Assembly: GCA_046758705.1 (NCBI GenBank)
Contig: JBHIAT010000027.1
Span: forward strand, 1-29,161
Reading direction: 5' to 3'
Length of the DNA: 29,161 nucleotides
From: Candidatus Bipolaricaulia bacterium
GTDB taxonomy: Bacteria > Bipolaricaulota > Bipolaricaulia > JBHIAT01
Shown: piece after piece, positions 7,240-28,170 of the stretch
Layout: each line of letters begins with the position of its first letter
Position numbering within the stretch: position 1 is the first letter of the stretch
Notes under the pieces: generated by a model
The model's input: only the letters and a program-made list of their open reading frames with translations
Databases searched by the model: none
Told to the model about the DNA's origin: nothing
Position numbers and translations under genes: made by a program

Positions 7240-7288
7240 GAGTTCAACGGGCTCATAGCCGATGAAGACGATGCGGAGGTGAGATCGG

Positions 7289-7705: not shown

Positions 7706-7722
7706 TCGCTGACGGCTGACGG

Positions 7723-10710: not shown

Positions 10711-10738
10711 AATCAACTCCTTTCTGACCGTTGCTGAG

Positions 10739-10930: not shown

Positions 10931-11797
10931 ATGATGATGGGCGCGATCAACAAGACGGACAAGCTCGATGCCCGGGGGATCAATCAACTGCAGCGCAGTG
11001 GAACCCTGCCCACCGTGTGGATTCCACCTGCAGAGATCCGCGATGCCCGAGACTTGCCCCGCACACGAATGGTGTTAACTCGGGAACGCACTCGGCTGAA
11101 GAATCGGATCCATGCCACGCTCGCCAAATACGCGCTCACGATTCGCGAGGTGAGCGATATCTTTGGAGTTCGGGGACGCGTTCTGCTTGCAGAACGAATC
11201 GAGCAGTTGCCGCCGCAGACTCAGTATGCCACCGAACGACTCCTGGAGCAACTACGAGCGGTGGATCAACAGATTCAGGCGTTTGAAGAACGGATGGAAG
11301 CGGTCTTCCACCAGACACCCACACCCCAGATCAAGTGGGTGATGAGCTTGCCGGGAGTCGGCTTCATCCTGGGGGTGGTGATCATCTCGGAGGTGGGAGA
11401 CGTCGATCGCTTCCCGAGCGCAGGCCACCTGGCCTCGTATGCGGGGACGACGCCCCGGGTACACGCCAGCGGAGGCAAGGTGCGCCATGGTCGCGTGCGC
11501 CAAGACGTGAACCGCTATCTGAAGTGGGCCTATGTGGAAACAGCGAATGCGGTCTGTCGCCATCGGAATCGGCCCGGTTGGCGACAGCGACATGTCAGTC
11601 AGTTGTATGAGCGAATCAAACGGCGCAAGGGGCATCTCAAGGCGATTGGAGCGGTATCACGGCATCTGGCGGAGGCGACGTACTGGATGCTGAAGAAGGA
11701 GGAAGGCTACCGAGATCCGATGAAGACGAGGACGAGCCAGGCGGTTTCGTCCACGGAGGCGCAAGCGCGGATGAGTCATGAGCCCAGACCCAACTGA
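10931..11797 (+). pseudogene. IS110 family transposase, 5'-truncated
   Basis: Begins at the KTDKLDA motif, so the first D/E of the DEDD domain are missing. [14 protein letters not shown]...SGG and LKWAYVE motifs are present. Confidence 0.85.
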
Positions 11798-11991: not shown

Positions 11992-12033
11992 AAAATTTTT
12001 GCAAAAATCAGCATCAGAAATCCGAGATTATCT

Positions 12034-12123
12034 ATGGATAATCGCACTTTAAGTCAACAGACCTATGAATACCTGCGTCAGGATATCCTGTCCAATCGCC
12101 TGTAACCTAGCGAGGTCATCATC
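12034..12123 (+). pseudogene. GntR family regulator N-terminal remnant
   Basis: MDNRTLSQQTYEYLRQDILSNRL*PSEVI resembles GntR helix 1 ('L..Q.Y..LR..I....L.PG'). Internal TAA at 12103-12105, and the rest of the gene is missing. Confidence 0.7.
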
Positions 12124-13137
12124 ATGACTCAATTTGGCGTCAACTTGAACAACCGCGAACCGCTCCTGGCGGAAGCGTACCGTGTGGCAGACCTGCTCGA
12201 TCTGTCCGAGGTCGTTGAGCAATCGGGCTTCGACTCGGTCTGGGTCGGTGACAGTCTGTTTTCCAAACCGCGTTACGAACCGCTGCAATTGCTGGCAGCT
12301 ATTTCCCAGCGCACGTCACGGGTCCGTCTGGGCACGGCCTGTCTGGTCACCGCCACGCGCAATCCCCTGTATCTGGCATTGGAATGGGCGACGTTGGACG
12401 TCCTCTCCAACGGGCGCACGATCCTCGGCGCCTGCATGGGAAATCCTGAGGAAGGCGTACGCAGAGAATATCAAGCCCTCAGGCTTGACTTTGCCAAGCG
12501 GGCGAACATCTTCGAAGAGGGGTTGGCGGTGCTACGCGAACTCTGGACTCGCGGCAAGGTGAACTTTCAGGGTGAGTATTTTCAGTACGAGGACGTTCAG
12601 TTTTACTCGGGGACGGAGATGGGGCCGCTATCACCGGTTCAAAAGCCACCGCCCATCTGGGTGGTGAGCAACCCCCGGTTGATTCCGGGTAGCGTGACCG
12701 AGGAAGGCGTACAGCGCATCATTGACCGGGCATCGCGGCGCATCGCTCGATACGGTGACGGCTGGCTGACCTGTTGCCGCGCCCGTCATCCGGAAGAGTT
12801 TCAATCACAACGCAAGCGCATCGCTGAAGCCGTGGCCAAGATCGATCGCGACATCTCCGAGTATGCGATGGCCTACCAGGTGACCATGAACGTCGCAGAC
12901 AGCGAGGTGGAAGCTCAACGCAGCCTCGGGGAGTACATCAGCACCTATTATCCGGAACTCAGTCAGTCTATGGATCTGGGGGAGTGGGGACCCACGGGTA
13001 CGCCAGAACAGATCGCCCAGTGGATCCGCGACTTCCAAGACGCCGGGGTCAACTACTTCATCTGTCGCTTTGGCGCTTTGGATCAGTTCGGCCAGGTCGA
13101 ACGGTTCACAAACGAGGTTTTGCCGTTGGTGAGTTAA
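12124..13137 (+). CDS. LLM-class (luciferase-like) flavin/F420-dependent oxidoreductase
   Basis: GFDSVWVGDS, TSRVRLGT, ATLDVLSNGR, YGDGW, GTPEQ motifs. Confidence 0.9.
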   Translation: MTQFGVNLNNREPLLAEAYRVADLLDLSEVVEQSGFDSVWVGDSLFSKPRYEPLQLLAAISQRTSRVRLGTACLVTATRNPLYLALEWATLDVLSNGRTILGACMGNPEEGVRREYQALRLDFAKRANIFEEGLAVLRELWTRGKVNFQGEYFQYEDVQFYSGTEMGPLSPVQKPPPIWVVSNPRLIPGSVTEEGVQRIIDRASRRIARYGDGWLTCCRARHPEEFQSQRKRIAEAVAKIDRDISEYAMAYQVTMNVADSEVEAQRSLGEYISTYYPELSQSMDLGEWGPTGTPEQIAQWIRDFQDAGVNYFICRFGALDQFGQVERFTNEVLPLVS

Positions 13138-13193: not shown

Positions 13194-14312
13194 CTAAAGG
13201 GGAGCGGGCTTCAACGGCGCAAGGCCGTGGGCTGGTTCCCAACCCGTAGCTTTAGACAGAATCACCAGAGCGGCGTTGAGGTCGCGATCACAGCGGAAGT
13301 CGCAATGAGGACAGTCATGCACACGCAAACTGAGCATCTTAGGAACAAGCTGACCGCACGATGCGCACTGTTGGCTTGTGTAGGCGGGGTTGACCTTTAC
13401 GAGCTTGGACCCGGTTCTCTCTACCTTGTATCCAAGCATCGGTACGAAGGTTCCCCAACCTGCATCGTAGATCGACTTGTTCAGTCCGTTGTGACCGTTG
13501 GCTGTCATGTTCTTGATGTTCAGCTTTTCGACCGCGATCCGGCTAAACTCTTGAGTCAATCGGTGAGACAGCTTGTGCAAGAAGTCCTTGCGTTGACGCT
13601 GGACCTTGGCGTGAAGCTGAGACAGGCGGTTGCGCTGCCGCCGGGACTTACACTTGGAGTACCGTTGTTGGACTGCCTTAAGGCGTTCCTCAGACTGGCG
13701 ATACCAGCGCGGGTTAACGATCTTTTCACCCGTAGACAACGTGGCAAACGACTCCAGGCCCACGTCGATCCCTACAGCGGGACCGGTGTGAGCAGGCGGC
13801 GTTGGGTTGGGGAACTCAAAGCGAAAGGTGACAAACCACTTGCCATCAGCGTGGCGAGTCAGCACCAAGTCTTTGATCTTGGCACCGTCAGGCAAACCAC
13901 GATGCCAGCGAACCTTGATCTCGCCAGCATTTTGGATTCTCAGCCGGTGGTTCTTGGTCAGGCTGGTACCATCGCCAAAACGGAACTCCAGCGAGCGGAA
14001 GCGCGCCAGCGGTTTGAACCGTGGCCGACCCCGCTTGCCGTTGACGAACTCACGGTACACCTTATCCAGCCTGCGAAGCACCTGCTGGCATGCCGAGAAG
14101 TTGAGAACACCGATGTCGGGATGCTCGTTGCGGATCGCTTTGAGGTCCGAAGCCTGATCCAGATACCAGACTGGCTTGCGATACCATCTCCAACACAACA
14201 GACGATGTTCCAGACTGGCGTTGTAGAGCCGCTGGCCCGCCACAAGCAATTGCTCAAGCGCTTGTGCTTGCTTCTTGGTCGGATACAGGCGGTATTGGTA
14301 AGCGCGTTTCAA
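13194..14312 (-). CDS. tnpB: RNA-guided endonuclease TnpB
   Basis: AYQYRLYPT N-terminus, RuvC motifs GIDVG / AVEKL / DRDLNAA, zinc finger CASC..CPHC. Confidence 0.95.
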   Translation of the reverse strand: MKRAYQYRLYPTKKQAQALEQLLVAGQRLYNASLEHRLLCWRWYRKPVWYLDQASDLKAIRNEHPDIGVLNFSACQQVLRRLDKVYREFVNGKRGRPRFKPLARFRSLEFRFGDGTSLTKNHRLRIQNAGEIKVRWHRGLPDGAKIKDLVLTRHADGKWFVTFRFEFPNPTPPAHTGPAVGIDVGLESFATLSTGEKIVNPRWYRQSEERLKAVQQRYSKCKSRRQRNRLSQLHAKVQRQRKDFLHKLSHRLTQEFSRIAVEKLNIKNMTANGHNGLNKSIYDAGWGTFVPMLGYKVERTGSKLVKVNPAYTSQQCASCGQLVPKMLSLRVHDCPHCDFRCDRDLNAALVILSKATGWEPAHGLAPLKPAPL

Positions 14313-14708
14313 TTAAACCTCCGTCTGTTCTTCGATGTAACGTTTGATCGTTTCAGCGGATACGTGCCCAGCGGTTCCAACGTAATAGGTGCGCGTCCAA
14401 AGTTTGCCGCGAATCTGCTGTTCCAGTTGGGGGAATTCATGGCGAAGCCAGCGAGCGGTTGGTCCCTTAAATGCGTTGGCAATCCAAGCAGGAGAATGTC
14501 TTGGCGGTGCGGATACGAACAGGTGAACGTAGTCCGGCATCACTTGGGCTTCCAGAATCTCAAGCTCGTTATTGGCGGCAATGGTCTCGAACATCTCAAG
14601 CAAGCGGTTTTTCACCGAACCCACAAGAATAGGGCGGCGATACTTGGGTATCCACACCAGGTGATAGTTGATATTGTAAACCGTATAGCGTGTTTTCTTC
14701 GCTTGCAT
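14313..14708 (-). CDS. tnpA: IS200-type Y1 transposase TnpA (HUH motif altered to YVH)
   Basis: YHLVWIPKYRR, LWTRTYYVGT, IKRYIEEQ motifs; PDYVH instead of PDHVH. Confidence 0.92.
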   Translation of the reverse strand: MQAKKTRYTVYNINYHLVWIPKYRRPILVGSVKNRLLEMFETIAANNELEILEAQVMPDYVHLFVSAPPRHSPAWIANAFKGPTARWLRHEFPQLEQQIRGKLWTRTYYVGTAGHVSAETIKRYIEEQTEV

Positions 14709-14817: not shown

Positions 14818-15816
14818 ATGGATGAGTCTATGCGTAAAGATGCAGAGTTGATTGTGGACATCTGCATGTCCATCGGCAAAGACGAGGCGGTCACGATCAT
14901 CACCGACAATGACCACCTCAAAGAGGCGAATGCGCTGGCTGCGGTCGCGGTCGATCGAGGAGCGTTCCCAGTCATTGCCAACAACGATGCTCAGGTGAGC
15001 CGTGGTCTCAAGGACACGCACTTTCCCATGGCCCCTCCCAAGAACCTCCATCAAGCGATGGTTCACTCGGACACCATCCTGATCATCACCAACCTGGAGT
15101 GGGCCAATCGCTTTGCCCACATCAGCGCGGTCAAAGAGTCGTGTGCAAACAACGCCAAGATCGCGTCGGTGGAGGAGGGAATGGGCTCATGGAATTTGAT
15201 GCAGGAGGACATCCAACAGGCCGTGGACCGCGCGCATAAGGCAGCCGAGATCCTAAATCAGGCGAACCGTGTCCGGGTGACCTCGGCGGTGGGCACCGAC
15301 GTCGAGGTCTCCATCGAGAGACGCCCGGCGCTGGAAGTGATCCCGATCAAGAACCCAGGGGACATGATGGGCCCCCTGCCTCTGTGGACTGAGGTCGCTT
15401 TTGCCGCCGTGGAAGATCAGACCGAAGGCCGCATCGTGGTCGATGGCGTCATGTTGGGGATTGGGGTTCCGGGCGCGGTGAACACGCCGATCGTCTGGGA
15501 GGTCAAGGGAGGCAAAGCCGTGTCGATCGAAGGCGGAGAAGAGGCTGAACGCCTTAAGAACACGATCGAGGGCGTGGACGGCGCGGACATCATCGGTGAG
15601 TTTGCCTTCGGCACGAGCGAAAAAGCTCCGTTCGGCACACCCTCAGAAAAGGGTCGACGAGGAACGATTCACTTCGCCCTCGGCGACAACCACAACGCTT
15701 ACCCCGGTGGCCAAAACGTGAGCACGCTGCACCTCGATGGCGTTGTCCGCGACGGCACGCTCCAGGTCGTGGACACCGGGCAATATATCGTCAAAGATGG
15801 ACAGTGGATGATATGA
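14818..15816 (+). CDS. Peptidase M29-like / NicX-fold metalloenzyme
   Basis: VRVTSAVGTD, EV.FA, EG.IVVDG, IGEFAFGT, GTIHFALGDN, HLDG motifs. Confidence 0.75.
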   Translation: MDESMRKDAELIVDICMSIGKDEAVTIITDNDHLKEANALAAVAVDRGAFPVIANNDAQVSRGLKDTHFPMAPPKNLHQAMVHSDTILIITNLEWANRFAHISAVKESCANNAKIASVEEGMGSWNLMQEDIQQAVDRAHKAAEILNQANRVRVTSAVGTDVEVSIERRPALEVIPIKNPGDMMGPLPLWTEVAFAAVEDQTEGRIVVDGVMLGIGVPGAVNTPIVWEVKGGKAVSIEGGEEAERLKNTIEGVDGADIIGEFAFGTSEKAPFGTPSEKGRRGTIHFALGDNHNAYPGGQNVSTLHLDGVVRDGTLQVVDTGQYIVKDGQWMI

Positions 15817-16190
15817 GCTTGAATCCGAATGAAGTGCAGGTGGTTCGGCTGTCCGAGACGTCCAAAATCGAACTGCCTCAAGGAAGCTGGAGTGCGATGG
15901 TGATCTCCACGGAGCGGGTCTCAGGCAATCAAAGTTCGTTGGGATACTCGGTGTTCACGCCAGGGACGGCGTTGCCGACCGTGAAGCACGAGGTCGAAGA
16001 GGTGGCTATCGTGCTTCAGGGCAGGGGGGAACTGCGCATAGATGGGGATTCCATTCCATATCAGAAGGGCGATGCGCTGTTCATCCCGGCCGGCGTGTGG
16101 CATTCGGTGGTCAATACCGGATCGGAGGACGTCGTGATGGTGTTTGGCTTTCCTCATCCGGAGTATCCACCCACGAAAAGGCGAGAATAA
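15813..16190 (+). CDS. Cupin domain protein
   Basis: HEVEEVAIVLQGRG and GDALFIPAGVWH cupin motifs; ATGA overlap with the previous gene. Confidence 0.88.
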   Translation: MSLNPNEVQVVRLSETSKIELPQGSWSAMVISTERVSGNQSSLGYSVFTPGTALPTVKHEVEEVAIVLQGRGELRIDGDSIPYQKGDALFIPAGVWHSVVNTGSEDVVMVFGFPHPEYPPTKRRE

Positions 16191-16195
16191 CCCCT

Positions 16196-16912
16196 ATGAA
16201 GTCGACTCGGCAACTGCAAACAGAGGTGGCCTGGGCGTGTCGGATCTTGGCGATGGAAAACCAGGGGGATTTGAGCCTGGGACACGTCAGCGCGCGGTAT
16301 GACTCACGGACGGTGTACATGAAGCGGCGAGGGCTGGGACTGGGTGAGGTAACCGCAAACGACGTGATCCCCATAGATCTTCAGGGTCGGCAACTCGAGC
16401 CAGCGGAGAATGGACAGGGTGTACACCTGGAGTTCCCTTTGCATACCGAAGTGTACAAGCTGAGGCCCGATGTGGGGGCGGTGATCCATGCCCACCCCAT
16501 CCACGCGATCGCGTTGGGAGCTACCTCTGAGGAGCTCAAGATGATCAATCACGATGCCGTACTGTTCTATGACGGCTTGCCCCGCTTCAATGACTCACCC
16601 GACCTGATCACCGGTACCGAGCAGGGACAGGCCGTCGCCCGCGCGCTGGGCAGCGCTCGCGCCTTGCTGCTGTGCAACCACGGCACATTGGTTGTTGGCA
16701 AGGATGTGCGCTGGGCGATCGTCACCGCCCTGACCTTGGAAAGAGCGATACAACTGCAGCTGATCGCAACCCGCTTGGGAGATTTGACCCACGTGATCAG
16801 TGCGTCTGAGGCAGAAGCCCTGTTTCCGAAAAAGTACCAGGATGCGTTTATCGATGACTACTGGGAATATCTCATCCGCCGTGCTCGACGTGTGGGAGAG
16901 GATGTCTCATGA
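16196..16912 (+). CDS. Class II aldolase/adducin family protein; candidate 3-hydroxy-2-methylpyridine-4,5-dicarboxylate decarboxylase
   Basis: GHVSAR, E..LH..VY..RPDVGAVIHAH, NHG motifs. The specific function is inferred from context only. Confidence 0.8.
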   Translation: MKSTRQLQTEVAWACRILAMENQGDLSLGHVSARYDSRTVYMKRRGLGLGEVTANDVIPIDLQGRQLEPAENGQGVHLEFPLHTEVYKLRPDVGAVIHAHPIHAIALGATSEELKMINHDAVLFYDGLPRFNDSPDLITGTEQGQAVARALGSARALLLCNHGTLVVGKDVRWAIVTALTLERAIQLQLIATRLGDLTHVISASEAEALFPKKYQDAFIDDYWEYLIRRARRVGEDVS

Positions 16913-16928: not shown

Positions 16929-19214
16929 GTGGATTCGCTGATTGGCAAGAGCATACCGCGGGTTGACGGTGTCGACAAGGTGACCGGGCAGGCGATCTAC
17001 ACCGCCGATCTCAGGTTGCCCAACATGCTCTACGGCAAGGTGCTGAGAAGTCCCTATCCCCACGCCCGCATCCGAAACATCGATGTAAGCGGCGTGCTCA
17101 AGATCCCAGGCGCCGTCGCGGTGCTGACCGGCAAAGATCTGACGGAGATCGATCCCTTCTATGGACATGCGATCAAGGACCGTCCGATCGTCGCAATCGA
17201 CCGGGTGCGGTTTATCGGCGAACCGGTCGCGGCCGTGGCTGCAGAAAGCGAGGCGATCGCCGCAGATGCCCTCGATGCGATTCACGTTGAGTATGAGGAG
17301 CTGCCGGTGGTGGCAGACATCGAAGCGGCCTTGAAGGAAGGGATGCCTGCACTGCATGAAGACACCCCGCGCCGCCTCGGACTGTTTCACGGCTTGGGAG
17401 ATCTAGGCCCTCTGGAAGGCAACGTCTGTTATCGCTATGGGTTCTCCACGGGCGATGTAGACGAACTCTTTGCCGAAGCCACTCACGTGGTCGAAGCGGA
17501 GTACACCTTCCCGGCCGTCTACCAATATGCCATGGAAACCCATGCCGCCTTGGGGCACTACACCAACGAGAAGGTGACGATCTGGGCGAACTGCCAGCAT
17601 CCCCATATCATCCGGGCGGAGATCGCTGACATTTTCTCAATTCCGCTCTCGATCGTGCGCGTCATCGTCCCGTACATCGGCGGGGGATTCGGCAGCAAAT
17701 CTTACACCCGTCTGGAACCGCTTGCCGTAGCGCTGTCGATGAAAGTGGGATATCCGGTCCTCATCGTGAACACGGTCGAGGAAGCGATGGCCACCTCGCG
17801 CCGTCACGGAATGCGCTGTTGGATGAAAACAGCGGCAGACGGACACGGCCGTCTGTTGGCTCGACAATGCCGGCTATGGCTGGATACGGGCGCCTATGCC
17901 GATAACGGTCCGCGGGTGGTCGCAACCGCCGGCGATGCAGCGCCAGGGCCCTATCGCTGGCAGGCGGTGTCGATCGAGGCCGCCGGGGTGTACACCAACA
18001 CCTCACCGGCGGGATCGTACCGCGCGTTAGGCAACGCGCAGCTGCAATGGATCGGGGAAAATCAGGTGGATACACTCGCACGTCGCATCGGCATCGATCC
18101 GGTGGAGATGCGCCGGCAAAATTTGCTCAAGCCCGGTGAGGAGGTGCGTCCAGGAGCCAAACCGTTGGACGCTGATCTGATCGGCGATGTGACGAAAGCA
18201 GCGGAAGCCCTGGGCTGGGACAGCTCCACCCCCAAATCACCCGGGGTGGGCCGAGCGGTCAGCGTGGGACTGCTGGCTGCCGGAGCACATCCTGTGTCTA
18301 CCGCGCTGGTCCACATGCTCGCCGACGGGAGCGTCCTGGTGTTAGTGAGCACGACCGAGGTGGGCCAAGGGGCTCAAACGGTGATGACCCAGATCGTTGC
18401 CTCTGAGTTAGCGATCTCGCCGTCGCGAGTCCGGGTCGTCAACCCAGACACCGAGTTCTCGCCCTTTGATCGCTCGACCGGAGCCAGTCGGTCCACCACC
18501 ATCGCTGGTAAAGCACTGCAAAATGCGGCGGTGGATTTGCGAAACAAGCTGGTGAGCATGGCAGCACGATCATGGGACCAGCCGGAGTCAGCCGCCGAAG
18601 TCAAGGACGGTGGCATCTCTTTCGGCAATGAAGTGATTCCTTACGAAAAAATCATCGAGCGTTACTTCGGGATGGTCGGCGGTCAGGTGGTCGGTTTCGG
18701 TGAGGTTCACCCGAAAAAGGGCGATGACGGTTCGTTTGCAAAAGGTCCCGTCTTTTGGGAGGTCTGCGTCGGCGCTGCTGAAGTCGAGGCGGATCCCGAA
18801 ACGGGGCGGGTGCGTTTGAAGAAGCTGGTTGCGGTGGCTGACCTCGGACGTGCCATGAACAAAGCGTTGATCGAGGGACAGGAGCAAGGAGGCAGCTTAC
18901 AGGGCATGGGGAATGCGCTGATCGAAGAGATGGTCTTCGAAAACGGTCAACTGCTCAACCCGTCACTGCTCGACTACCGGGTTCCTCGGTGGGAGGACAT
19001 TCCAGAACAGTTTGCGTCCGTCCTGGTTGAGAACGAAGACGGGCCCGGCCCGTATGGAGCGAAAGGTATAGGAGAGGGATCTCAAGCCGCAGCGATCGGC
19101 GCGGTGGCCGGTGCGGTGGCGGACCTCGGCATCGAGGTCCGCCAGCTGCCGCTCACACCGGCGATGGTCTGGGCAGCTATGCAGGATAGACAACAGACCA
19201 AGGAAAAAACCTGA
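16929..19214 (+). CDS. Xanthine dehydrogenase-family molybdopterin-binding large subunit
   Basis: IGKSIPRVDG..KVTG, RSPYPHARI, GGGFGSK, EVGQG, TGASR, GAKGIGE (catalytic Glu). GTG at 16929 with GAGGAGG SD; alternative ATG at 16902. Confidence 0.9.
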   Translation: MDSLIGKSIPRVDGVDKVTGQAIYTADLRLPNMLYGKVLRSPYPHARIRNIDVSGVLKIPGAVAVLTGKDLTEIDPFYGHAIKDRPIVAIDRVRFIGEPVAAVAAESEAIAADALDAIHVEYEELPVVADIEAALKEGMPALHEDTPRRLGLFHGLGDLGPLEGNVCYRYGFSTGDVDELFAEATHVVEAEYTFPAVYQYAMETHAALGHYTNEKVTIWANCQHPHIIRAEIADIFSIPLSIVRVIVPYIGGGFGSKSYTRLEPLAVALSMKVGYPVLIVNTVEEAMATSRRHGMRCWMKTAADGHGRLLARQCRLWLDTGAYADNGPRVVATAGDAAPGPYRWQAVSIEAAGVYTNTSPAGSYRALGNAQLQWIGENQVDTLARRIGIDPVEMRRQNLLKPGEEVRPGAKPLDADLIGDVTKAAEALGWDSSTPKSPGVGRAVSVGLLAAGAHPVSTALVHMLADGSVLVLVSTTEVGQGAQTVMTQIVASELAISPSRVRVVNPDTEFSPFDRSTGASRSTTIAGKALQNAAVDLRNKLVSMAARSWDQPESAAEVKDGGISFGNEVIPYEKIIERYFGMVGGQVVGFGEVHPKKGDDGSFAKGPVFWEVCVGAAEVEADPETGRVRLKKLVAVADLGRAMNKALIEGQEQGGSLQGMGNALIEEMVFENGQLLNPSLLDYRVPRWEDIPEQFASVLVENEDGPGPYGAKGIGEGSQAAAIGAVAGAVADLGIEVRQLPLTPAMVWAAMQDRQQTKEKT

Positions 19215-19224
19215 ACAACAGACG

Positions 19225-20778
19225 ATGAGCAATCGATTGAAGCAGGACCGTGATGCCCTGATCCAGATGCGTAGGATCACGAAGCGATTTCCCGGCGTCG
19301 TCGCCAATGACGAGATCGATTTGGATCTGTACTCCGGGGAGATTCACACGTTGCTCGGGGAGAACGGGGCGGGGAAGACGACGCTGCTGAATATCCTTTC
19401 CGGGATGCATCAGCCGGATGAAGGGACGATCACCATTCGGGACCGCGAGGTGCGGTTCAAATCGCCCCACGACGCCCTGAGCCACGGGATCGGCACCGTC
19501 TATCAGCACTTCACTCTCGTGCCCAATCTCTCTGTGATCGAGAATGTGATCCTGGGGGCCAACAACGGTTTCTTCCTCGATTTGCGCCGTGCGGAGGGAC
19601 AAATCCGAGAGATGCTGGAGAAACTCGACCTGGACATCGATCCCCAACTTCAGGTCCAGTATCTGTCCCTGGGACAACAGCAGCGGGTCGAGATCATCAA
19701 GGTGCTGTTCAGGGAGCCCGAGACCCTTCTGCTGGATGAACCGACTTCGGTCCTGACGCCCGGTGAGATTCGAGAACTGTTCAGAATGGTGAAGCAGCTG
19801 AAAGCCGAGGGGAAGAACGTGGTGTTCATTACACACAAGTTACAAGAAGCCCTGGAGATCAGCGACCGCATCACGATCCTGCGCAATGGCCGACACATCG
19901 AAACCTTGGGACCGGAGACACTGGCCACCGAAGACCGGGAGGCCGTTTCAAATCGGATCGTGAAGTTGATGTTTGGCGGGGTGCCCCCTCAGGAATCGTC
20001 ATCGCGCTCCCGAGAAGACAGCCGGGAGCCGGTCCTGTCGTTGGAGCACATCACCATCATCGGGTCGCGGGGCGTGCCAGCTGTGCGTGATCTCTCACTG
20101 GATCTGCATACTGGCGAGATCTTCGGGATCGCCGGCGTGGGAGGGAGCGGTCAAAAGGAGTTGGGCGAGGCCATCGCCGGCCAATCCCCGGTCATCAACG
20201 GGCGTGTGCGCATCGAGGAGGTCGACATCACCAATAAGGGCGTTCCCTTCGCTATGGATCGGAGGATCGCCTACATCACCGACGACCGTATCGAGGAAGG
20301 GACCGTCTCCGACCTGAGCGTGGCAGAGAACGCTGTCATGCGGATCATTGACCGGGAGCCGATGTCCCGTTGGTCCATATTAAACTGGCAGGCGATTTTG
20401 GATCACGCAATGCAGCTGATCCACGGATTTAACATCAAGGTCGGTGGACCCAAGGTGCGGACGGGCACGCTCTCCGGAGGGAACATCCAGAAATTGTTGC
20501 TGTCCCGAGAACTGTCCAGGAAGCCCAAAGTGCTCGTCTGCAATGAGCCCACCCATGGCCTCGATATCAAGACCGCTCATTTTGTCCGGCAAACGCTTCG
20601 GGAACAGGCCGATCGCGGAACGGCCATCCTGCTGATCTCCTCCGATCTCGATGAGATCCTCGAAATGAGCGACCGTATCGGGGTGATGTACAACGGTCAG
20701 TTGCTGGCCGTCCTCCCAGCGACTGAGGCCGATCGCGAGACCATCGGTCGCTTGATCCTGGGGAAACGGTCATCATGA
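19225..20778 (+). CDS. ABC transporter ATP-binding protein (nucleoside/CUT2 type; putative B6 uptake)
   Basis: FPGVVAND, GENGAGKT, two NBDs, LSGGNIQK. Confidence 0.92.
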   Translation: MSNRLKQDRDALIQMRRITKRFPGVVANDEIDLDLYSGEIHTLLGENGAGKTTLLNILSGMHQPDEGTITIRDREVRFKSPHDALSHGIGTVYQHFTLVPNLSVIENVILGANNGFFLDLRRAEGQIREMLEKLDLDIDPQLQVQYLSLGQQQRVEIIKVLFREPETLLLDEPTSVLTPGEIRELFRMVKQLKAEGKNVVFITHKLQEALEISDRITILRNGRHIETLGPETLATEDREAVSNRIVKLMFGGVPPQESSSRSREDSREPVLSLEHITIIGSRGVPAVRDLSLDLHTGEIFGIAGVGGSGQKELGEAIAGQSPVINGRVRIEEVDITNKGVPFAMDRRIAYITDDRIEEGTVSDLSVAENAVMRIIDREPMSRWSILNWQAILDHAMQLIHGFNIKVGGPKVRTGTLSGGNIQKLLLSRELSRKPKVLVCNEPTHGLDIKTAHFVRQTLREQADRGTAILLISSDLDEILEMSDRIGVMYNGQLLAVLPATEADRETIGRLILGKRSS

Positions 20779-21833
20779 GCACAAGCACGAGCGAAAAAAC
20801 CTGGGTAAGACACCTGAGGCCATCGGTCAACCTGGTGCTGACCATCTTCGGCGCGTTCGTGGTCGGTGGACTGCTGCTGTGGAGCTTAGGAATCGATCCG
20901 ATCGAAGCTTATCGGATGCTGTTTGTCAGAGGATTAGGGACCAATCTCGGTGTCACCGAGACCCTGATCAAGATGACGCCCTTGCTCATGGTGAGTGCCG
21001 GACTGCTGATCGCGTTGTCAGCCGGGGTGTGGAATATCGGCCTTGACGGTCAGTTTCTCATCGGTGCCATCTTCGTCGGGGTCACCGCCCCGGCGGTCAA
21101 TGCAGCTTTGCCCCTGGTCCCCTCGCTGCTGATCCTGGGGCTCATCGGCTTCTTGGGCGGTGCGACCTGGGCCATCATCCCGGCTGTACTTAAAATTCGC
21201 TACGGACTCAATGAGATCATCACCACCATTATGATGAACTTCGTCGCCATCAATCTCACCGCCTGGTTGGTGAAGGGGCCATTCAAGGATCGCTCGGTGA
21301 TCCCGCCACAGACGCCGGTGATCCCTCTGGAGGACCGTCTCCCGGCGGTTTGGGGCAGAGTCCACATCGGCCTGATCGTCGGTGCGGTCGTGGTGATCGC
21401 CGTCTACCTGCTGATGCGTAACACCACGGTGGGATGGAAGATGTCGGTCGTCGGCAAGAGCGTCAAAGCGGCCGTCCATGCCGGTATTCCTGTGGCACGC
21501 ATCACGACGATCGCTTTTCTGCTCAGCGCGGGTCTCGCCGGCCTGGCCGGTGCGAACGATGTCCTGAGTGTCAAAGGGATGTTCCAGGGTGAGTGGAACC
21601 CGGCATACGGCTTCACCGCGTTCGCTTTGGTCTTCTTGGCACGCTTTAATGCAGTTCTGATCATTGTGCTGGCTTACTTCTTCTCGTTCCTGATTCTCGG
21701 GGGTGAGTTGATATCGCGTCCACTGCGCATCCCCGTGTTCTTTGTCGAGGTCCTGGAGGGATTGATGCTGATCCTGTTTGCGGCCAGCGAGTACCTGGAG
21801 CGGAGGCGAACGCGGAGGCGGAGGCCGATCTGA
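20775..21833 (+). CDS. ABC transporter permease 1
   Basis: Hydrophobic; WNIGLDGQ, NEIITTIMMN motifs. Confidence 0.9.
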   Translation: MSTSTSEKTWVRHLRPSVNLVLTIFGAFVVGGLLLWSLGIDPIEAYRMLFVRGLGTNLGVTETLIKMTPLLMVSAGLLIALSAGVWNIGLDGQFLIGAIFVGVTAPAVNAALPLVPSLLILGLIGFLGGATWAIIPAVLKIRYGLNEIITTIMMNFVAINLTAWLVKGPFKDRSVIPPQTPVIPLEDRLPAVWGRVHIGLIVGAVVVIAVYLLMRNTTVGWKMSVVGKSVKAAVHAGIPVARITTIAFLLSAGLAGLAGANDVLSVKGMFQGEWNPAYGFTAFALVFLARFNAVLIIVLAYFFSFLILGGELISRPLRIPVFFVEVLEGLMLILFAASEYLERRRTRRRRPI

Positions 21834-21834
21834 T

Positions 21835-22758
21835 ATGGAAGTGTTTGTGACCGTGTTGTTAAGCTCAGGGTTGCGTTCTTCCATCACGTTGCTGCTTGCG
21901 GCGCTCGGCGAAACTTACAACGAGAAAGCCGGGCTCCTCAATCTGGGCATTGAGGGTATGATCCTGAACGGGGCGTTTGGTGGGTTCTACGTCGCATTCA
22001 ACACAGGAAGCGTCTTCTTGGGCTTTGTCGCCGGCTTGGTGGTGGGCATTATCTCCGGTCTGATCTTCGGTTACCTCGCGATTACGCTCAAGCTCAACCA
22101 GGTCGTCGTGGGAATTGGATTCACCATCTTCGCTACCGGGATTACCAGCTTCCTGTTTCGCTACTTCTACGGTCGACGCTTTCCCACGTTGGACCTGGGG
22201 AATAAAACGCTCGAAATCCCGCTACTCAGCAAGATTCCCGTCCTCGGTCCGATGCTGTTCGACCAGCATCTGGTCGTCTACTTGGCACTGTTGATGGTCC
22301 CCGTATTTCATCTGGTGATGACACGAACCTCCTTCGGGCTCAACGTCAAAGCCGTCGGCGAAAGCCCTGTCGCTGCCGACGCCTCCGGGGTCAACGTCGT
22401 TCGGATCCGATACGCGGTCAGCGCCATTGCGGGCGCGACGGCCGGTTTGGGCGGGGCATTTCTCTCTATCGGCGACCTGTCGTTCTTTTTGCCGGGGATG
22501 ACCCAGGGAATAGGTTTCATCGCCATTGCGATTGCCATGCTCGGCCGGTGGGCCCCGTATCGGGTTTTTATCGGAGCGTTTCTGTTCGGGTTGGTGCAAT
22601 CTCTCGATGCCGGATTGCAGACCCAAGGCATCCCCGTCCGACCGGAGTTCATTCATATGTTACCATACATCGGCGTTATCGTTGCCCTGGTGTTCCTGGC
22701 GCGCAACGCGAGATTGCCAGCAGCGCTGGCCCTGCCCTATGAACGGGGGAGGCAGTAA
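21835..22758 (+). CDS. ABC transporter permease 2
   Basis: LLAALGE...KAGLLNLGIEG, AVGESP.AADASGVNV, MLPY motifs. Confidence 0.9.
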   Translation: MEVFVTVLLSSGLRSSITLLLAALGETYNEKAGLLNLGIEGMILNGAFGGFYVAFNTGSVFLGFVAGLVVGIISGLIFGYLAITLKLNQVVVGIGFTIFATGITSFLFRYFYGRRFPTLDLGNKTLEIPLLSKIPVLGPMLFDQHLVVYLALLMVPVFHLVMTRTSFGLNVKAVGESPVAADASGVNVVRIRYAVSAIAGATAGLGGAFLSIGDLSFFLPGMTQGIGFIAIAIAMLGRWAPYRVFIGAFLFGLVQSLDAGLQTQGIPVRPEFIHMLPYIGVIVALVFLARNARLPAALALPYERGRQ

Positions 22759-22844
22759 TGCAGACAGAGACAGGCAAGGAGGTGATCACCGTTCACAGCA
22801 CCCGAGCTTAACAGGCTAAATCGAAACCCAAAAACTAAAGAGGG

Positions 22845-23918
22845 GTGTCAGTGATGAACAGATTCAAAGTCGGTCTGTTGGTGTTGCTAGGCGTATTTCT
22901 GCTTGGCCTGTTGCCCAACTTAGATCTAGCTGAGCAGCTGGTCTGGAGTCAACAGAAGCTAAAGGTCGGTGTGGTGGTACCGGCAAGCCGCTTCGATCAA
23001 GGCTGGAACCAGGCGGCTCCCGATTCGATAGAGAGCATTGCAGACGAGCTTGGCTTGGAGGTAGAGATCGCCGAGCAGGCCGGGTACGGCGACATCTCAC
23101 CGATCCTCAGAGATTGGGCGTTCCGAGGATTCGACATAGTCATCTGTCACGCCAGCGGTTACCAGACCGTCTGCCCCGAGGTGGCTCAACAAACGGGACT
23201 TAAGGTAGTGATCGTCGAGAACATGCCGGCGGTCACACCGAATCTGGTCGCAGACTATGAGACCCAGGCCCAGGAGGGCGCTTACCTGGCAGGCGTTCTG
23301 GCCGGTATGATCACCCGCACCAACACGGTCGGGGTGGTCGTCTCGGCAGAGCCCCCCACCTGGAACTTCATGACGGTGGGATTTGCCGAAGGAGTCCACT
23401 CGGTGAATCCGAGCGCCAGGCTCCTCTACAACGTCATCGGTGACGCGGCCTACGAAGATGCGGCGGGGGCCAAGCGCAATACCGAGGCTCAGATCGCCGC
23501 TGGGGCTGACGTCGTCTTCGGTCAAGGAGATGGAGCGACGTTTGGCATGCTGCAAGCCGTTCAGGAGAACGAGGCCACTGATGGTGGCAAGGTGTGGTTC
23601 ATCGACGTGATCGGAGACAAGCGGACCATCGATCCGACCAACTCGATCCTGACTTCGGTGCTGTTCGATTACTCAGGGATCTTCTCCGCAATGGTCAACA
23701 ACATTCGCGACGGCACCTTCGGAAAGATCCACACCATGACCGTCCAGAACGGTGGTGTGCGATTGCTTGCACCGCCTGCGACCATCTCCGTGGAGGCACG
23801 TACCGCGCTCGCTCAGGCGGAAGCAGATCTATTGACCGGTCGGGTCGTGGTCTCAGCGATCGGTAATGTGGCAGGTCTGAGAGCGCGGCTCGAGGAACTC
23901 TTCCCAGACTCATTCTAA
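22845..23918 (+). CDS. BMP-family ABC substrate-binding protein (putative B6 vitamer binding)
   Basis: Signal-like N-terminus; DQGWNQ, EGAYLAGVLAG, GADVVF motifs. Start is 22845 or 22854. Confidence 0.88.
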   Translation: MSVMNRFKVGLLVLLGVFLLGLLPNLDLAEQLVWSQQKLKVGVVVPASRFDQGWNQAAPDSIESIADELGLEVEIAEQAGYGDISPILRDWAFRGFDIVICHASGYQTVCPEVAQQTGLKVVIVENMPAVTPNLVADYETQAQEGAYLAGVLAGMITRTNTVGVVVSAEPPTWNFMTVGFAEGVHSVNPSARLLYNVIGDAAYEDAAGAKRNTEAQIAAGADVVFGQGDGATFGMLQAVQENEATDGGKVWFIDVIGDKRTIDPTNSILTSVLFDYSGIFSAMVNNIRDGTFGKIHTMTVQNGGVRLLAPPATISVEARTALAQAEADLLTGRVVVSAIGNVAGLRARLEELFPDSF

Positions 23919-23997: not shown

Positions 23998-25167
23998 ATG
24001 CAGTGGCCAATCATGAATTTCGCCGCGGGACCGGTCGCGGTGACGGAGCGCACACTGAGGGATCAAGCCCGCCCTGTTCTCTATCACTATGATCCGGCAT
24101 TTCTGGAGTTTTTTGAGAGGACGGCGTCCCTGCTGCAGCAGGTGTATCGCACCGAATACGACGTGGTCATCATGCAAGGAGAAGCGGTCCTGGGTCTGGA
24201 GGCGACAGCTGCCTCCCTCATCTCGCCCGGAGATAAGGTGCTGAATTTGGTCTCCGGTGTGTTCGGCAAGTGGTACGAGCTGTATATCACCAAATACGGC
24301 GGTGAGACGGTGGAACTGGCGGTTCCCTATAATGATGCGATCGATCCCGATGATGTTCGAGCCGCGCTGAAGCGTGACCCGGAGATCAAATATCTGTCGG
24401 TTGTCCATTCGGAGACTCCCTCCGGTACGATCAACCCGGTCAAAGAGATCGGTGCCATTGCCCGGGAACACGATGTGCTTACCATCGTGGACACCGTTTC
24501 CGGTCTAGGCGGAGAACTCCTCAGCCCTGAGGAATGGAACATCGATGTCGCCGTGGCCGGCCCGCAGAAATGCCTCGGAGGGCCACCGGGGCTGTCACTG
24601 ATGGCGATCAGCCCCACAGCGTGGAACGCCATGGAGTCGCGAGACGACCCGCTGCGCGGTTCGTATCTATCGATCCTCGATTGGAAAGCGGCATGGATCG
24701 AGGAGCATCGCTTCCCCTACACGCCGTCGGTGAGCGACATCTATGCACTAGAGTCTGTGCTTTCACAGGTTCTAGAGGTGGGTCTGGAGAGTTACGTGGC
24801 ACGACACGAGGCGATCGCTCAGGCCTGTCGTGAGGGAGTCAAGGCACTGGGTCTGGAACTGTGGGCGGCACGCGAGGAGATCGCCGGGACTGCGGTAACC
24901 GCGGTCAAAATACCCAATGAGCTGACCGATGAGCAACTGCGGGGTCATCTGCGCGAGCACTATGGCGTGATGGTCTCCGGTGGATACGGAGAATTGGCCG
25001 GCAAGCTGTTTCGCCTGGGACACATGGGGAAGGTGGCACACCCGACGTACTTGGCGGCTCAGCTAGGTGTGTTGGAACGGACGCTGGCCGACCTGGGCAT
25101 GCCCGTGGAGTTCGGCACAGGTGTGGGAACTGCCATGGCTGCGTTAAGCGACTGGAAAAATTTATGA
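23998..25167 (+). CDS. ppaT: Pyridoxamine-pyruvate aminotransferase (class V fold)
   Basis: AGPV, VLYHYDPAF, GE.VLGLEA.AASLISP, VPYNDAIDP, TPSGTINP, GPQKCLG.PPGL and FP.TPSVS closely match my recollection of Mesorhizobium loti PPAT. Confidence 0.85.
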   Translation: MQWPIMNFAAGPVAVTERTLRDQARPVLYHYDPAFLEFFERTASLLQQVYRTEYDVVIMQGEAVLGLEATAASLISPGDKVLNLVSGVFGKWYELYITKYGGETVELAVPYNDAIDPDDVRAALKRDPEIKYLSVVHSETPSGTINPVKEIGAIAREHDVLTIVDTVSGLGGELLSPEEWNIDVAVAGPQKCLGGPPGLSLMAISPTAWNAMESRDDPLRGSYLSILDWKAAWIEEHRFPYTPSVSDIYALESVLSQVLEVGLESYVARHEAIAQACREGVKALGLELWAAREEIAGTAVTAVKIPNELTDEQLRGHLREHYGVMVSGGYGELAGKLFRLGHMGKVAHPTYLAAQLGVLERTLADLGMPVEFGTGVGTAMAALSDWKNL

Positions 25168-25189: not shown

Positions 25190-25933
25190 ATGCCGATCAG
25201 TGTGAAGGATCGTGTTGTCATTGTCACCGGCGGGGTCGGCGAGTTGGGATCGGTCATCGCTCGGCGCCTCGTAGAAGAGGGAGCCAAGGTCGTACTCGCC
25301 GATATACAGGATGGAGCTGCCCTTGAAGCTGAGCTCCAGAAGATCGGCACGGCCAAGTACGTCGAAACGGACGTCGGTGACGAAGGATCCACCCTTAACA
25401 TGGCCGCGGTCACGCAGGAGACCTTCGGCCGGATCGACGTGCTGATCAACAACGCCGGGATCTACACCGGAAAGCCCTTCGAAGAGATTACGCTGGAAGA
25501 CTGGCGGGAACGAATGCGCGTCAACCTGGACGGGGCATTCCTGTGTGTCAAAGCCGTGCTTCCGGCGATGAAAGCGCAACAAGCCGGGCGCATCATCAAC
25601 ATTGGCTCGGACACCGTCTGGATGGGCACACCGGGGCTGGCCCACTATGTCGCCAGCAAAGGCGGATTGCTGGGATTGACCCGTGCCCTGGCTACCGAAC
25701 TGGGACCGCTGGGGATCAAGACCGTGTGGATCTCCCCGACGTTGTTCGACACGCCGGGAACCCGACAAGCCTTTCTTCAAGAACACTTCGACTACGTCCT
25801 CAGCCATACCCCGATTGGCAAGTTCGAAACACCCGAGGACGTAGCCGGACTGGTGACCTTCCTGTGCTCCGATGAAGCCGAGTTCATCAACGGCTCAGCC
25901 ATTAACATCGGCGGGGGGATCAGCATGCATTAA
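25190..25933 (+). CDS. SDR oxidoreductase, pyridoxal 4-dehydrogenase-like
   Basis: TGGxxxLG, NNAG, YVASK motifs. GTP..AHYVASKGG..G.TRALATELG resembles pyridoxal 4-dehydrogenase; adjacent to ppaT. Confidence 0.75.
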   Translation: MPISVKDRVVIVTGGVGELGSVIARRLVEEGAKVVLADIQDGAALEAELQKIGTAKYVETDVGDEGSTLNMAAVTQETFGRIDVLINNAGIYTGKPFEEITLEDWRERMRVNLDGAFLCVKAVLPAMKAQQAGRIINIGSDTVWMGTPGLAHYVASKGGLLGLTRALATELGPLGIKTVWISPTLFDTPGTRQAFLQEHFDYVLSHTPIGKFETPEDVAGLVTFLCSDEAEFINGSAINIGGGISMH

Positions 25934-25965: not shown

Positions 25966-26712
25966 ATATCTATCAAGGTCTATCTGTTGGACGGTGGAAG
26001 CCTATTGCTCGACCAGTCATTCCTCACTTGGAACCACGGGATAGGCACTGCAAAGCGCATTCCCGTCTTCTCCGTGTTCATCGACCATCCCGAGGCCAAG
26101 GTGCTGTTCGACACCGGATTTGACCTGGAGCAAACCCAGAAGGATCTACCGTTCGAAGAGCCGTTGCAGACGGAGGAACAGACGATCGCCGCCCAGTTGG
26201 ACAAGATCGGGGTGCAGTCAAGCGATATCGACATCCTGGTCAACAGCCACCTCCACTTCGACCACTGCGGCGCCAACAAGCTGTTCCCCGACGTTGAGAA
26301 CATCATTAACAAGTGGGAGCTTCGCGAAGCGTTTGTTCCAGAGCCTTTCGAGCGTCTCGGCTACAACCGCATACACTTTGACTTTCCGGATCGAAATTAC
26401 CGGCTGATCGAGGGAGACTACGGGGTGCTGCCTGGCATTCAGCTCATATTCACGCCTGGGCATACGGTGGGACACTACTCCTTGTTGGTGGAGCTCGACT
26501 CGGGACCGCTGCTTTATGTCTCAGACGCCGCATGGGGTCCGGAAAACCTCGAGCACAACCATCCGATGGGACTGCACCACGATCCGTTGGCGATGCTGAA
26601 GTCGTTCCAACGGTTGAGGCAGATCATCGCAACTCGCAAGCCGATCGTGCTCTATCCTCACGATTTCGAGCAGTACGAGACGTACAAGAAAACGCCGGAT
26701 TTCTATGAATAA
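25966..26712 (+). CDS. 4-pyridoxolactonase (metallo-beta-lactamase fold, AHL-lactonase-like)
   Basis: KVYLLDGGSL.LD, LPFE.P.Q, VNSHLHFDHCG.NK, PFE.LGY, TPGH..GHYSLLVE. The expected start position 25966 is ATA. Confidence 0.85.
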   Translation: MSIKVYLLDGGSLLLDQSFLTWNHGIGTAKRIPVFSVFIDHPEAKVLFDTGFDLEQTQKDLPFEEPLQTEEQTIAAQLDKIGVQSSDIDILVNSHLHFDHCGANKLFPDVENIINKWELREAFVPEPFERLGYNRIHFDFPDRNYRLIEGDYGVLPGIQLIFTPGHTVGHYSLLVELDSGPLLYVSDAAWGPENLEHNHPMGLHHDPLAMLKSFQRLRQIIATRKPIVLYPHDFEQYETYKKTPDFYE

Positions 26713-27690: not shown

Positions 27691-28170
27691 ATGGAGTTTC
27701 ATAAGTCTACGGTCATCCGTGCACCCCATCAACGGGTGTGGGATTTCCTCTGGGATATCGAGCAGATGATAGAGTGCATTCCGGGGTGTCAGTCAGCCAC
27801 GACAGTGGAACCGGAGAAGAACTACCAGGCCGAGGTGGTCCAGAAGGTCGGTCCGTTTAGGGTGCAATTTCCACTGGACATCGCGATCAGGGAGAAGCAA
27901 GCGCCACACCACCTGGTGGCCGTTGCATCCGGCCGGGATTCTCGGGTCGAGTCGAGTGTCAACGTCGAACTCGACCTCCACCTGAAAGAAAAGACGAGCC
28001 AGGAGACGGAGCTGTCGTTCACCGCAAATGTCAACCTGTTGGGGAAGCTGGTCACGCTGGGACATGGCCTGATCCAGCGCAAAACGGATGAGATCATGAC
28101 CCAGTTTGCCAACGCGCTCAAGGAGCGACTCGAGGGAGGCGGGGAGGGGGACGCAGTTGAAGCCGTTTGA
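27691..28170 (+). CDS. coxG: CoxG/SRPBCC accessory protein of Mo-hydroxylases
   Basis: RVWDFLWD....CIPGC, KVGP, GKL..LG..LI motifs. Confidence 0.85.
   Translation: MEFHKSTVIRAPHQRVWDFLWDIEQMIECIPGCQSATTVEPEKNYQAEVVQKVGPFRVQFPLDIAIREKQAPHHLVAVASGRDSRVESSVNVELDLHLKEKTSQETELSFTANVNLLGKLVTLGHGLIQRKTDEIMTQFANALKERLEGGGEGDAVEAV

Follow-up and report, generated by a model that had tools for sequence, protein, structure and literature searches.

The window analysed here is the whole of contig JBHIAT010000027.1 (C27; 29,161 nucleotides) in the 3.70 Mb source assembly of Candidatus Bipolaricaulia bacterium (GCA_046758705.1, hereafter G000; 319 contigs, 93.9% complete). It carries a gene, called L below, which encodes the intact large subunit of a molybdenum hydroxylase of the xanthine oxidase family. 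We consider it somewhat probable that L is the molybdenum cofactor (Moco)-binding subunit of a hydroxylase with large, medium and small subunits (L-M-S) that is fixed in an alternative pathway of vitamin B6 catabolism, where it would hydroxylate C6 of a B6-derived pyridine carboxylate. The family of L, its orthology, the conserved gene neighbourhood and the inventory of subunits are shown by sequence comparison. The proposed substrate, attacked position and order of steps are read from the neighbouring genes, whose coordinates are collected in Table 1.

The plus-strand frame of L closes at 19214, and its longest version opens at 16800. The GTG at 16929 is the most plausible start, because GAGGAGG is found upstream of it with a 5-nt spacer and the translation from this codon agrees with the N-terminus of P0003, the closest database protein (77% identical). 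Three Pfam domains were detected above their cut-offs, namely Ald_Xan_dh_C (PF01315, 104 bits), MoCoBD_1 (PF02738, 231 bits) and MoCoBD_2 (PF20256, 218 bits), with E-values from 5e-30 to 2e-68. The catalytic glutamate is Glu716 of the 761-residue form, lies within YGAKGIGEGS (core motif GAKGIGEG) and is aligned to the equivalent residue of 1RM6, 8UEM, 1T3Q and 7DQX; the relatives of L keep it in the motif GAKGCGEG. The active-site loop GSYRALG was read at residues 362-368, within PAGSYRALGNAQ (residues 360-371), and the AYxCSFR loop is not present in the translation. The preliminary description of this DNA had placed the gene at the same position, with the catalytic glutamate and this loop in place of AYxCSFR, and all three statements hold. 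Members of the family use water to hydroxylate an electron-poor carbon beside a ring nitrogen, or they oxidise aldehydes. The carbon next to nitrogen is hydroxylated in this manner in nicotinate, quinoline and 6-hydroxypseudooxynicotine, and the enzymes for all three are among the best PDB matches of L.

We scanned a genome collection and obtained 179 stretches encoding relatives of L. The counts for relatives rest on the best 80 of these loci, in which L is 55–65% identical to the window protein; by title, 63 of them belong to Actinomycetota, 12 to Chloroflexota, 3 to Thermomicrobia, 1 to Firmicutes and 1 to Verrucomicrobiota. Altogether, orthologues (55–77% identical) exist in at least 81 other genomes. 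The presence of each neighbour was estimated by tblastn of the window proteins against the 80 loci, counted only where the flank was long enough. A near-invariant block was found (counts in Table 1). It comprises a luciferase-like oxidoreductase (LLM), an M29-like protein, a cupin, a class II aldolase-like protein, S, L, a 5-formyl-3-hydroxy-2-methylpyridine-4-carboxylate dehydrogenase (FHMPC-DH), a lactonase and a short-chain dehydrogenase/reductase (SDR). In 55 loci LLM is preceded by a GntR/FCD regulator, and in 59 the SDR is followed by a zinc alcohol dehydrogenase.

We built a tree of 41 large subunits, comprising window L, 23 L proteins from the clusters, four database orthologues and 13 paralogues (four from G000 and nine from class relatives). 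Window L, the 23 cluster proteins and the four database orthologues form one clade (SH-aLRT 100), with 13/13 paralogues outside. Within the clade, window L groups with P0003 and P0004 (support 100), beside L014 and P0005 (support 98). Among 184 genomes of the phylum, the orthologue is present in two, G000 itself and G093 (77% identical); class-level relatives gave only paralogues at 34–38% identity. A plasmid search with L returned nothing above 40.5% identity, and the same search with FHMPC-DH gave only generic matches (35–41%).

The link of L to vitamin B6, already suggested in the preliminary description, is supported by the curated B6 models that match its neighbours and by the same B6 neighbours in relatives of several phyla. 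NCBIfam B6 models are the top match for five neighbours in the window, with a wide margin in four and a narrow one for the SDR. The only NCBIfam match of the ABC binding protein is NF047927, ‘putative B6 ABC transporter substrate-binding protein’ (330.2 bits, cut-off 400). In one relative (L027), the SDR passes its cut-off (356.5 against 325), the lactonase reaches 319 against 325, and a truncated FHMPC-DH scores 417. The class II aldolase-like protein matches 3,4-dihydroxyphthalate decarboxylase in NCBIfam (107 bits, under the cut-off) and Mlr6791 of M. loti (PDB 2z7b), the decarboxylase of 3-hydroxy-2-methylpyridine-4,5-dicarboxylate (HMPDC), at E 7.6e-17. By this homology, it is probably an aromatic decarboxylase of the HMPDC decarboxylase type.

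From these genes a route may be drawn up. The ABC system, of B6 type, would import pyridoxamine or pyridoxal, which the transaminase, SDR and lactonase, as assigned by homology, would convert to 4-pyridoxate. 4-Pyridoxate would then be oxidised, and FHMPC dehydrogenase and the aldolase-like decarboxylase would yield a 3-hydroxy-2-methylpyridine carboxylate, either HMPDC or 2-methyl-3-hydroxypyridine-5-carboxylate (MHPC). Since C2 is methylated in all B6 intermediates, the nitrogen has only one free carbon beside it, C6. The molybdenum enzyme would hydroxylate it with oxygen from water, Glu716 acting as the base, and the electrons would exit via the two 2Fe-2S clusters of S and then the flavin adenine dinucleotide (FAD) of M. 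The product would be of the 2-pyridone or 2,5-dihydroxypyridine type; if derived from MHPC, it would be an aza-analogue of gentisate. LLM, the cupin and the M29-like protein would open and hydrolyse this product, replacing the FAD-dependent MHPC oxygenase and the α-(N-acetylaminomethylene)succinate (AAMS) hydrolase of Mesorhizobium. The cupin might cleave the MHPC-derived product; alternatively, its reduction and hydrolysis could follow the pattern of nicotinate fermentation.

The choice of C6 hydroxylation depends on what the genome lacks. No MHPC-oxygenase-like flavoprotein was found in the window, and the best protein of G000 for PF01494, the family to which we take MHPC oxygenase to belong, is a geranylgeranyl reductase homologue (68 bits). 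With no such flavoprotein in G000, hydroxylation at C6 in place of the flavin oxygenase route is the best reading. The best PF01494 scores in genomes G032 and G033 are 55 and 78 bits; in G031, two strong PF01494 proteins are encoded at a distance of about 0.7 Mb from the cluster. GMC oxidoreductases number zero in G093 and one in G000, on another contig. Four conserved proteins to be assigned (the molybdenum enzyme, LLM, the cupin and the M29-like protein) face three tasks without an assigned enzyme, which are oxidation of the 5′-alcohol of 4-pyridoxate, activation and opening of the ring, and amide hydrolysis. Ring hydroxylation by the molybdenum enzyme is the most economical allocation.

The bacteria known to degrade B6 are a few Proteobacteria and one Arthrobacter, and in these the ring is opened by a flavin oxygenase. 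Mesorhizobium loti and Pseudomonas MA-1 represent vitamin B6 degradation pathway I. The window shares with it homologues of the transaminase, pyridoxal 4-dehydrogenase, 4-pyridoxolactonase, FHMPC dehydrogenase and class II aldolase-like decarboxylase, although the scores of the window proteins stay under the curated cut-offs. In contrast to pathway I, the window cluster has neither an MHPC oxygenase-like flavoprotein nor a GMC-type 4-pyridoxate dehydrogenase, and it adds the molybdenum hydroxylase, an F420-type LLM, the M29-like protein and the cupin. A second comparison is given by two Rhizobium plasmid B6 clusters, L125 (NZ_CP048425.1, 7496-28675) and L126 (CP021372.1, 5493-26700), of which we found no description and whose product names come from the annotators. 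In common with the L clusters, they combine a non-canonical lower pathway with pyridoxamine-pyruvate transaminase, lactonase, SDR, GntR and a BMP-type ABC transporter. However, these clusters have no molybdenum enzyme, FHMPC-DH or class II aldolase, and possess instead a GMC ‘pyridoxine 4-oxidase’, a NicX-type 2,5-dihydroxypyridine dioxygenase, two amidases, an MmgE/PrpD protein and an HpaB-like two-component flavin monooxygenase with its flavin reductase. The occurrence of a true NicX-type dioxygenase in a Rhizobium B6 cluster makes C6-oxygenated lower routes plausible.

We compared L with curated equivalog models and solved structures. The highest NCBIfam scores, for the alpha subunit of 4-hydroxybenzoyl-CoA reductase (4-HBCR; TIGR03194, 483 bits against a cut-off of 995) and for XdhA (NF043082, 481 against 780), are both far under the cut-offs. 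The further models for purine xanthine dehydrogenase (XDH) gave 454 against 916 (NF007426), 406 against 784 (PucD, TIGR03196) and 293 against 850 (TIGR02965). XdhA, PucD and XdhB were therefore rejected. The preliminary description had named grouping with purine-specific XDHs, together with inactivity on pyridines, as counting against its reading, and L does not fall into the purine XDH equivalogs. Form I CO dehydrogenase (CoxL) was rejected on the loop GSYRALG and on its models, at 298 against 991 (TIGR02416) and 309 against 950 (NF040766). Glyceraldehyde dehydrogenase alpha (413.7 against 790) and PaoC (244 against 1180) were rejected on the curated cut-offs, and the pterin aldehyde oxidoreductase model matched weakly, far below its own. 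4-HBCR alpha was rejected on its score and on that of M against the HcrB-type model TIGR03195 (83.5 against 404.6). L has the motif GGGFGSKS, conserved across its family, a serine of which presumably sits where the GGGFGGKE of purine XDH has its substrate-binding glutamate.

The best PDB chains for L are 4-HBCR (323 bits), mycobacterial CoxL (270), quinoline 2-oxidoreductase (266) and 6-hydroxypseudooxynicotine dehydrogenase (263). 4-HBCR alpha (1RM6) is collinear with L over residues 4-750, but its catalytic-glutamate motif, GAKEASEG, differs from GAKGIGEG, the M of the window is not 4-HBCR-beta-like, and there is no benzoyl-CoA context. Quinoline 2-oxidoreductase (1T3Q) and 6-hydroxypseudooxynicotine dehydrogenase (7DQX) are L-M-S hydroxylases of N-heterocycles with the same type of loop (GAYRGVG and GAYRAPG), although their scores are only 263–266 bits and their substrates and gene clusters are different. 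The highest summed score is that of the two Moco chains of Eubacterium barkeri nicotinate dehydrogenase (3HRD; 222.7 and 143.4 bits, 366 together), a member of the same family that hydroxylates a pyridine carboxylate beside the ring nitrogen with water. MHPC itself is a substituted nicotinate. The two chains resemble L only remotely (phmmer E 8.5e-65 and 8.2e-41), and the window protein is a single 761-residue chain set among B6 genes instead of nicotinate genes; neither selenium-related nor nic genes were noticed around it. Pseudomonas NicAB is a further nicotinate dehydrogenase.

Three conserved neighbours lie outside the proposed upper route. LLM has the F420-type family TIGR03619 as its best NCBIfam match (132.7 bits, cut-off 166.9), and its best PDB profile matches are the F420 enzymes Mer, FGD and Adf. 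As the marker for coenzyme F420 we used CofE (PF01996) in place of CofD (PF01933), since the latter is unspecific and also matched the Escherichia coli and Bacillus subtilis controls. CofE is encoded in 5/5 cluster genomes tested, and among 14 control genomes only in three archaea. LLM is thus probably F420-dependent, judging from its family matches.

The M29-like protein gave a predicted model of high quality (predicted local distance difference test, pLDDT, 90.9), and among solved structures its fold comes closest to that of NicX, a 2,5-dihydroxypyridine dioxygenase (template modelling score, TM, 0.75–0.78), ahead of the M29 aminopeptidases. The iron-binding motif of NicX and Hpo is H-X52-H-X-D (PMC3831237). 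In an alignment to a NicX homologue so named by PGAP, the invariant E261 is aligned to the first histidine of this motif, and H305-L-D307 is retained. A dioxygenase of the NicX type was therefore rejected at the motif level, and the step that the preliminary description had expected to follow, catalysed by a 2,5-dihydroxypyridine dioxygenase, is weakened accordingly. E192 and E261 are aligned to E253 and E319 of PepS, and residues with these numbers are metal ligands in the M29 aminopeptidase AmpS (PMC4661694). H285 and Y295 are invariant. Together with H285, Y295, H305 and D307, the last four placed by spacing alone, E192 and E261 make up the E-E-H-Y-H-D set of M29 hydrolases, from which we read the protein as probably a hydrolase and less probably a dioxygenase. 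The cupin has invariant H62, E66 and H100 in the alignment of relatives. Gentisate and 5-nitrosalicylate dioxygenases are among its relatives in sequence, and its fold neighbours (DddK, RemF, KdgF) are generic.

By analogy, the block could also be an oxygenase-free lower pathway for B6, in which C6 hydroxylation by the molybdenum enzyme would be followed by F420-linked redox chemistry (LLM) and hydrolytic opening of the pyridone, a lactam, by the M29-type protein. We regard this extension as possible but tentative. Its logic of hydroxylating, reducing and hydrolysing is that of nicotinate fermentation in Eubacterium barkeri. If it were true, an oxygenase-free pathway would be widespread in soil Actinomycetota, Chloroflexota and this vent-associated lineage.

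The other subunits of the enzyme were then considered. From the stop of L it is 8.5 kb downstream to CoxG and CoxM, near the 9 kb given in the preliminary description; the true start of CoxM is probably just after the stop of CoxG. The absence of a 2Fe-2S subunit, reported there as well, is confirmed by a search of the whole genome with Fer2_2 (PF01799), in which no 2Fe-2S gene was found on C27. G000 holds five L, four M and three S genes, and the three S genes are on other contigs, in the operons M-S-L (C142), S-L-M (C153) and L-L-M-S (C57). With 86 S queries, tblastn detected no further S copy in the assembly. In a tree of 69 small-subunit proteins, a branch with support 98/92 separates the 64 cluster-adjacent S from the three S of G000. 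The glutamine of the C-x3-Q-C-G motif is present in 64/64 cluster S, and the three from G000 have glycine there. On both grounds they were rejected as the cognate partner.

The contig of G093 is collinear with the window and has no insertion sequence (IS). Its gene order is GntR, LLM, M29-like, cupin, aldolase-like, L, four ABC genes, transaminase, SDR, lactonase, FHMPC-DH, CoxG, CoxM and S, with CoxM 67% and CoxG 59% identical to their counterparts at the same place in the window. The split of the subunit genes across the operon, noticed earlier, is thus an inherited arrangement. The S gene of G093 (173 aa, with the Gln motif) directly follows CoxM, so that the cognate S of the window would be expected directly after 29020. 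There, the contig ends in the first 25 codons of an IS605-like frame. In Pfam this frame matches nothing but the IS605 OrfB helix-turn-helix (E 0.059), and its resemblance to the N-terminus of the window TnpB is weak (E 0.001); the last 141 bases of the contig occur once in the assembly. The IS that the preliminary description put at 29021 is accordingly plausible on thin evidence, and its advice to look for S beyond this point is sound in view of the G093 order. Logan contigs from runs labelled hydrothermal vent metagenome extend 351–1779 nt past the window end, so the cognate S may simply be unassembled.

The position of M varies among the relatives. CoxM lies within 10 kb of L in 19/80 loci, and in 5/5 Actinomycetota genomes tested an orthologue stands 0.4–1.3 kb past the 10-kb upstream flank (43–47% identity, 229–246 bits, with no other copy in these genomes scoring above 131 bits). 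Thermomicrobia have M-S-L contiguous, and CoxG adjoins CoxM in the relative L036. The enzyme is thus of the ordinary L-M-S type, with a gene arrangement that differs between lineages.

Some minor observations concern the subunit genes. Glutamine for the usual glycine in the first 2Fe-2S motif (C-x3-Q-C-G-x-C) is a clade marker in the 64 cluster S (e.g., L016, 9507-9968) and in the S of G093. Run X4 contains a contig of low depth, from a related strain, that departs from the window at 29011 and beyond, just before the coxM stop, with a loose end of 56 letters; this strain may lack the IS or have another 3′ end. The L-L-M-S operon of C57 (about 2800-10000; L001, L005, L008, L010) has two L genes but only a single FAD and a single 2Fe-2S gene after them, which suggests that two molybdenum subunits share their electron-transfer partners. 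A second molybdenum frame lies about 7 kb downstream of the cluster L in some Actinomycetota relatives. In L027 (16816-19374), it combines Fer2/Fer2_2 and Moco domains in one stop-to-stop open reading frame (ORF), and either a fusion of S with L or a pair of neighbouring genes may underlie it.

Several points weigh against the role in C6 hydroxylation. The putative substrate of the molybdenum enzyme is deduced from its neighbours, and the scores of all B6 models in the window are under the curated cut-offs. The best single PDB and NCBIfam matches of L are 4-HBCR and XdhA, not a pyridine hydroxylase. Both aldehyde steps of the route have enzymes and the oxidation of 4-pyridoxate has none assigned, so the allocation of roles is not unique. 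The M29-like protein lacks the first NicX histidine and the fold of the cupin is generic, so neither of them is demonstrated to be a dioxygenase that cleaves a dihydroxypyridine ring. In G000, moreover, S is not assembled, the regulator is gone and the operon is split by IS, and two substitutions in the active-site loop of L (F367L and H371Q) are unique to the window, at sites at least 97% conserved in the 80 relatives.

The last two points would be explained if L were a decaying or non-functional copy in a transferred cluster that has received three IS and lost its regulator and perhaps S. Three IS elements indeed flank or split the cluster: the IS110 stands at the place of GntR, of which a 49-aa GntR-like remnant is left (11968-12114), the IS200/IS605 element parts LLM from the rest, and the IS605-like start follows CoxM. 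The place of the IS200/IS605 element measures only about 35 nt in G093, and the two DNAs cease to be collinear at 13106/14831. Occurrence of the orthologue in only 2/184 phylum genomes and the lack of a cognate S in the assembly point the same way. Yet 15/15 cluster ORFs are full length without stops. Of the 270 positions of L with at least 97% conservation among the 80 relatives, 27 deviate in the window protein, but most of these deviations (CQHPHII, R462H, R483Q, P645K and others) are common to P0003 and P0004 and are thus lineage traits instead of decay. The cupin (0/24 conserved positions) and LLM (2/127) hardly deviate, the other cluster genes are near the consensus, the Logan contigs run on past the end of the contig, and the assembly is 93.9% complete. 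Decay of this copy therefore appears unlikely to us. Alternatively, the enzyme could serve the B6 pathway as an aldehyde oxidoreductase, turning pyridoxal into 4-pyridoxate, or FHMPC or isopyridoxal into the acid, with oxygen from water. Mammalian aldehyde oxidase converts pyridoxal to 4-pyridoxate. The family includes aldehyde oxidoreductases, three of whose models match L weakly, B6 catabolism has two aldehyde intermediates, and S-L is conserved directly beside the FHMPC-DH-like gene. However, such an oxidase would be redundant, since the cluster already has a pyridoxal 4-dehydrogenase-like SDR with a lactonase and an FHMPC-DH-like gene, kept in nearly all relatives (Table 1). The ring-opening step would be left without a candidate activating enzyme, and all aldehyde oxidoreductase models are far under their cut-offs. 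This function is improbable to a similar degree.

The cluster might instead degrade another N-heterocycle, such as a hydroxypyridine, a purine or a nucleoside-derived base, the B6 labels being family-level look-alikes. BMP-family binding proteins often bind nucleosides (their Pfam name is PnrA-like), XdhA is among the best NCBIfam matches of L, and the B6 scores under cut-off would fit. But five B6 models are the top matches (e.g., 444 against 212, 283 against 158 and 378 against 230 bits), the pyridoxal 4-dehydrogenase model passes its cut-off in L027, XdhA and PucD stay far under theirs, and L presumably has serine at the position of the purine-binding glutamate. We judge this alternative to be less likely still. 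A reductive enzyme like 4-HBCR that removes a ring hydroxyl deserves very little credence. No single PDB chain matches L better than 4-HBCR alpha, which also shares first place among the NCBIfam models, but its 483 bits are less than half of the cut-off, ordinary FAD subunits match M better than 4-HBCR beta does, and the summed 366 bits of the E. barkeri nicotinate dehydrogenase chains exceed the 4-HBCR score.

We found no paper linking a molybdenum enzyme to bacterial B6 degradation in the full-text literature, a search outside which subscription journals and supplements lay; the accessible part of one 2026 preprint contains neither ‘molybd’ nor ‘xanthine dehydrogenase’. If C6 hydroxylation by the L-M-S enzyme is true, the xanthine oxidase family would gain a new class of physiological substrate, and a second, possibly oxygenase-free, lower pathway for B6 would be defined. 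It would also suggest that B6 turnover in soil and sediment is carried largely by Actinomycetota and Chloroflexota. Testable roles would follow for four families, namely the F420-type LLM, the NicX-fold M29 protein, the small cupin and CoxG.

Table 1. Features of the window and their occurrence at the relatives' loci (genes found/loci with sufficient flank).
Feature	Coordinates	Strand	Basis and remarks	Relatives
IS110-family transposase	10931..11797	+	Pfam; at the place of the GntR/FCD regulator in relatives	
Luciferase-like oxidoreductase (LLM)	12124..13137	+	PF00296; first gene of the conserved block	62/64
IS200/IS605 element	13194..14708	-	tnpB 13194-14312 (OrfB_IS605), tnpA 14313-14708 (Y1_Tnp); between LLM and M29-like genes	
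M29-family/NicX-fold metalloprotein	14818..15816	+	Peptidase_M29, E 1.7e-12	66/66
Single-domain small cupin	15804..16190	+	Cupin_2, E 1e-18	70/70
Class II aldolase-like protein	16097..16912	+	Aldolase_II	72/72
2Fe-2S small subunit S			directly upstream of L in relatives	77/78
Molybdenum hydroxylase large (Moco-binding) subunit L, 761 aa	16929..19214	+	three Pfam domains; ribosome-binding site and start; clade	
ABC importer	19111..23918	+	Pfam; ATPase ORF 19111-20778, permeases 20775-21833 and 21778-22758, BMP-family binding protein 22845-23918	
Pyridoxamine-pyruvate transaminase-like (class V aminotransferase)	23998..25167	+	NF046070 444.6 bits, cut-off 600; next family 212	
SDR, pyridoxal 4-dehydrogenase-like	25190..25933	+	NF047923 221.6 bits, cut-off 325; next family 206.6	64/67
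Metallo-beta-lactamase fold, 4-pyridoxolactonase-like	25987..26712	+	NF047925 282.9 bits, cut-off 325; next family 158	68/68
FHMPC dehydrogenase-like, 3HCDH fold	26733..27683	+	NF042925 378.5 bits, cut-off 500; next family 230	70/73
CoxG-like SRPBCC accessory protein	27691..28170	+	PF06240, E 1.7e-21	
CoxM-like FAD-binding medium subunit M	28106..29020	+	FAD_binding_5 and CO_deh_flav_C	
IS605 tnpB-like gene, first 25 codons	29086..29161	+	contig ends here; S gene expected beyond	

The left part of the window contains other systems. A defence island occupies 1-5959 on the minus strand. It consists of BrxC/PglY (1740-5573; PADLOC 2007 bits, Pfam DUF6079), BrxF (5459-5959) and an HEC-01 pair, HEC-01A (498-1739) and HEC-01B/DUF4276 (1-501, cut by the contig start). 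Its GC content is about 49–52%, compared with 58–61% in the B6 cluster. Beside the IS110, also on the minus strand, a TacA-like antitoxin (10408-10806) is followed by a GNAT acetyltransferase (9880-10407), which is the layout of a TacAT-type toxin-antitoxin pair.

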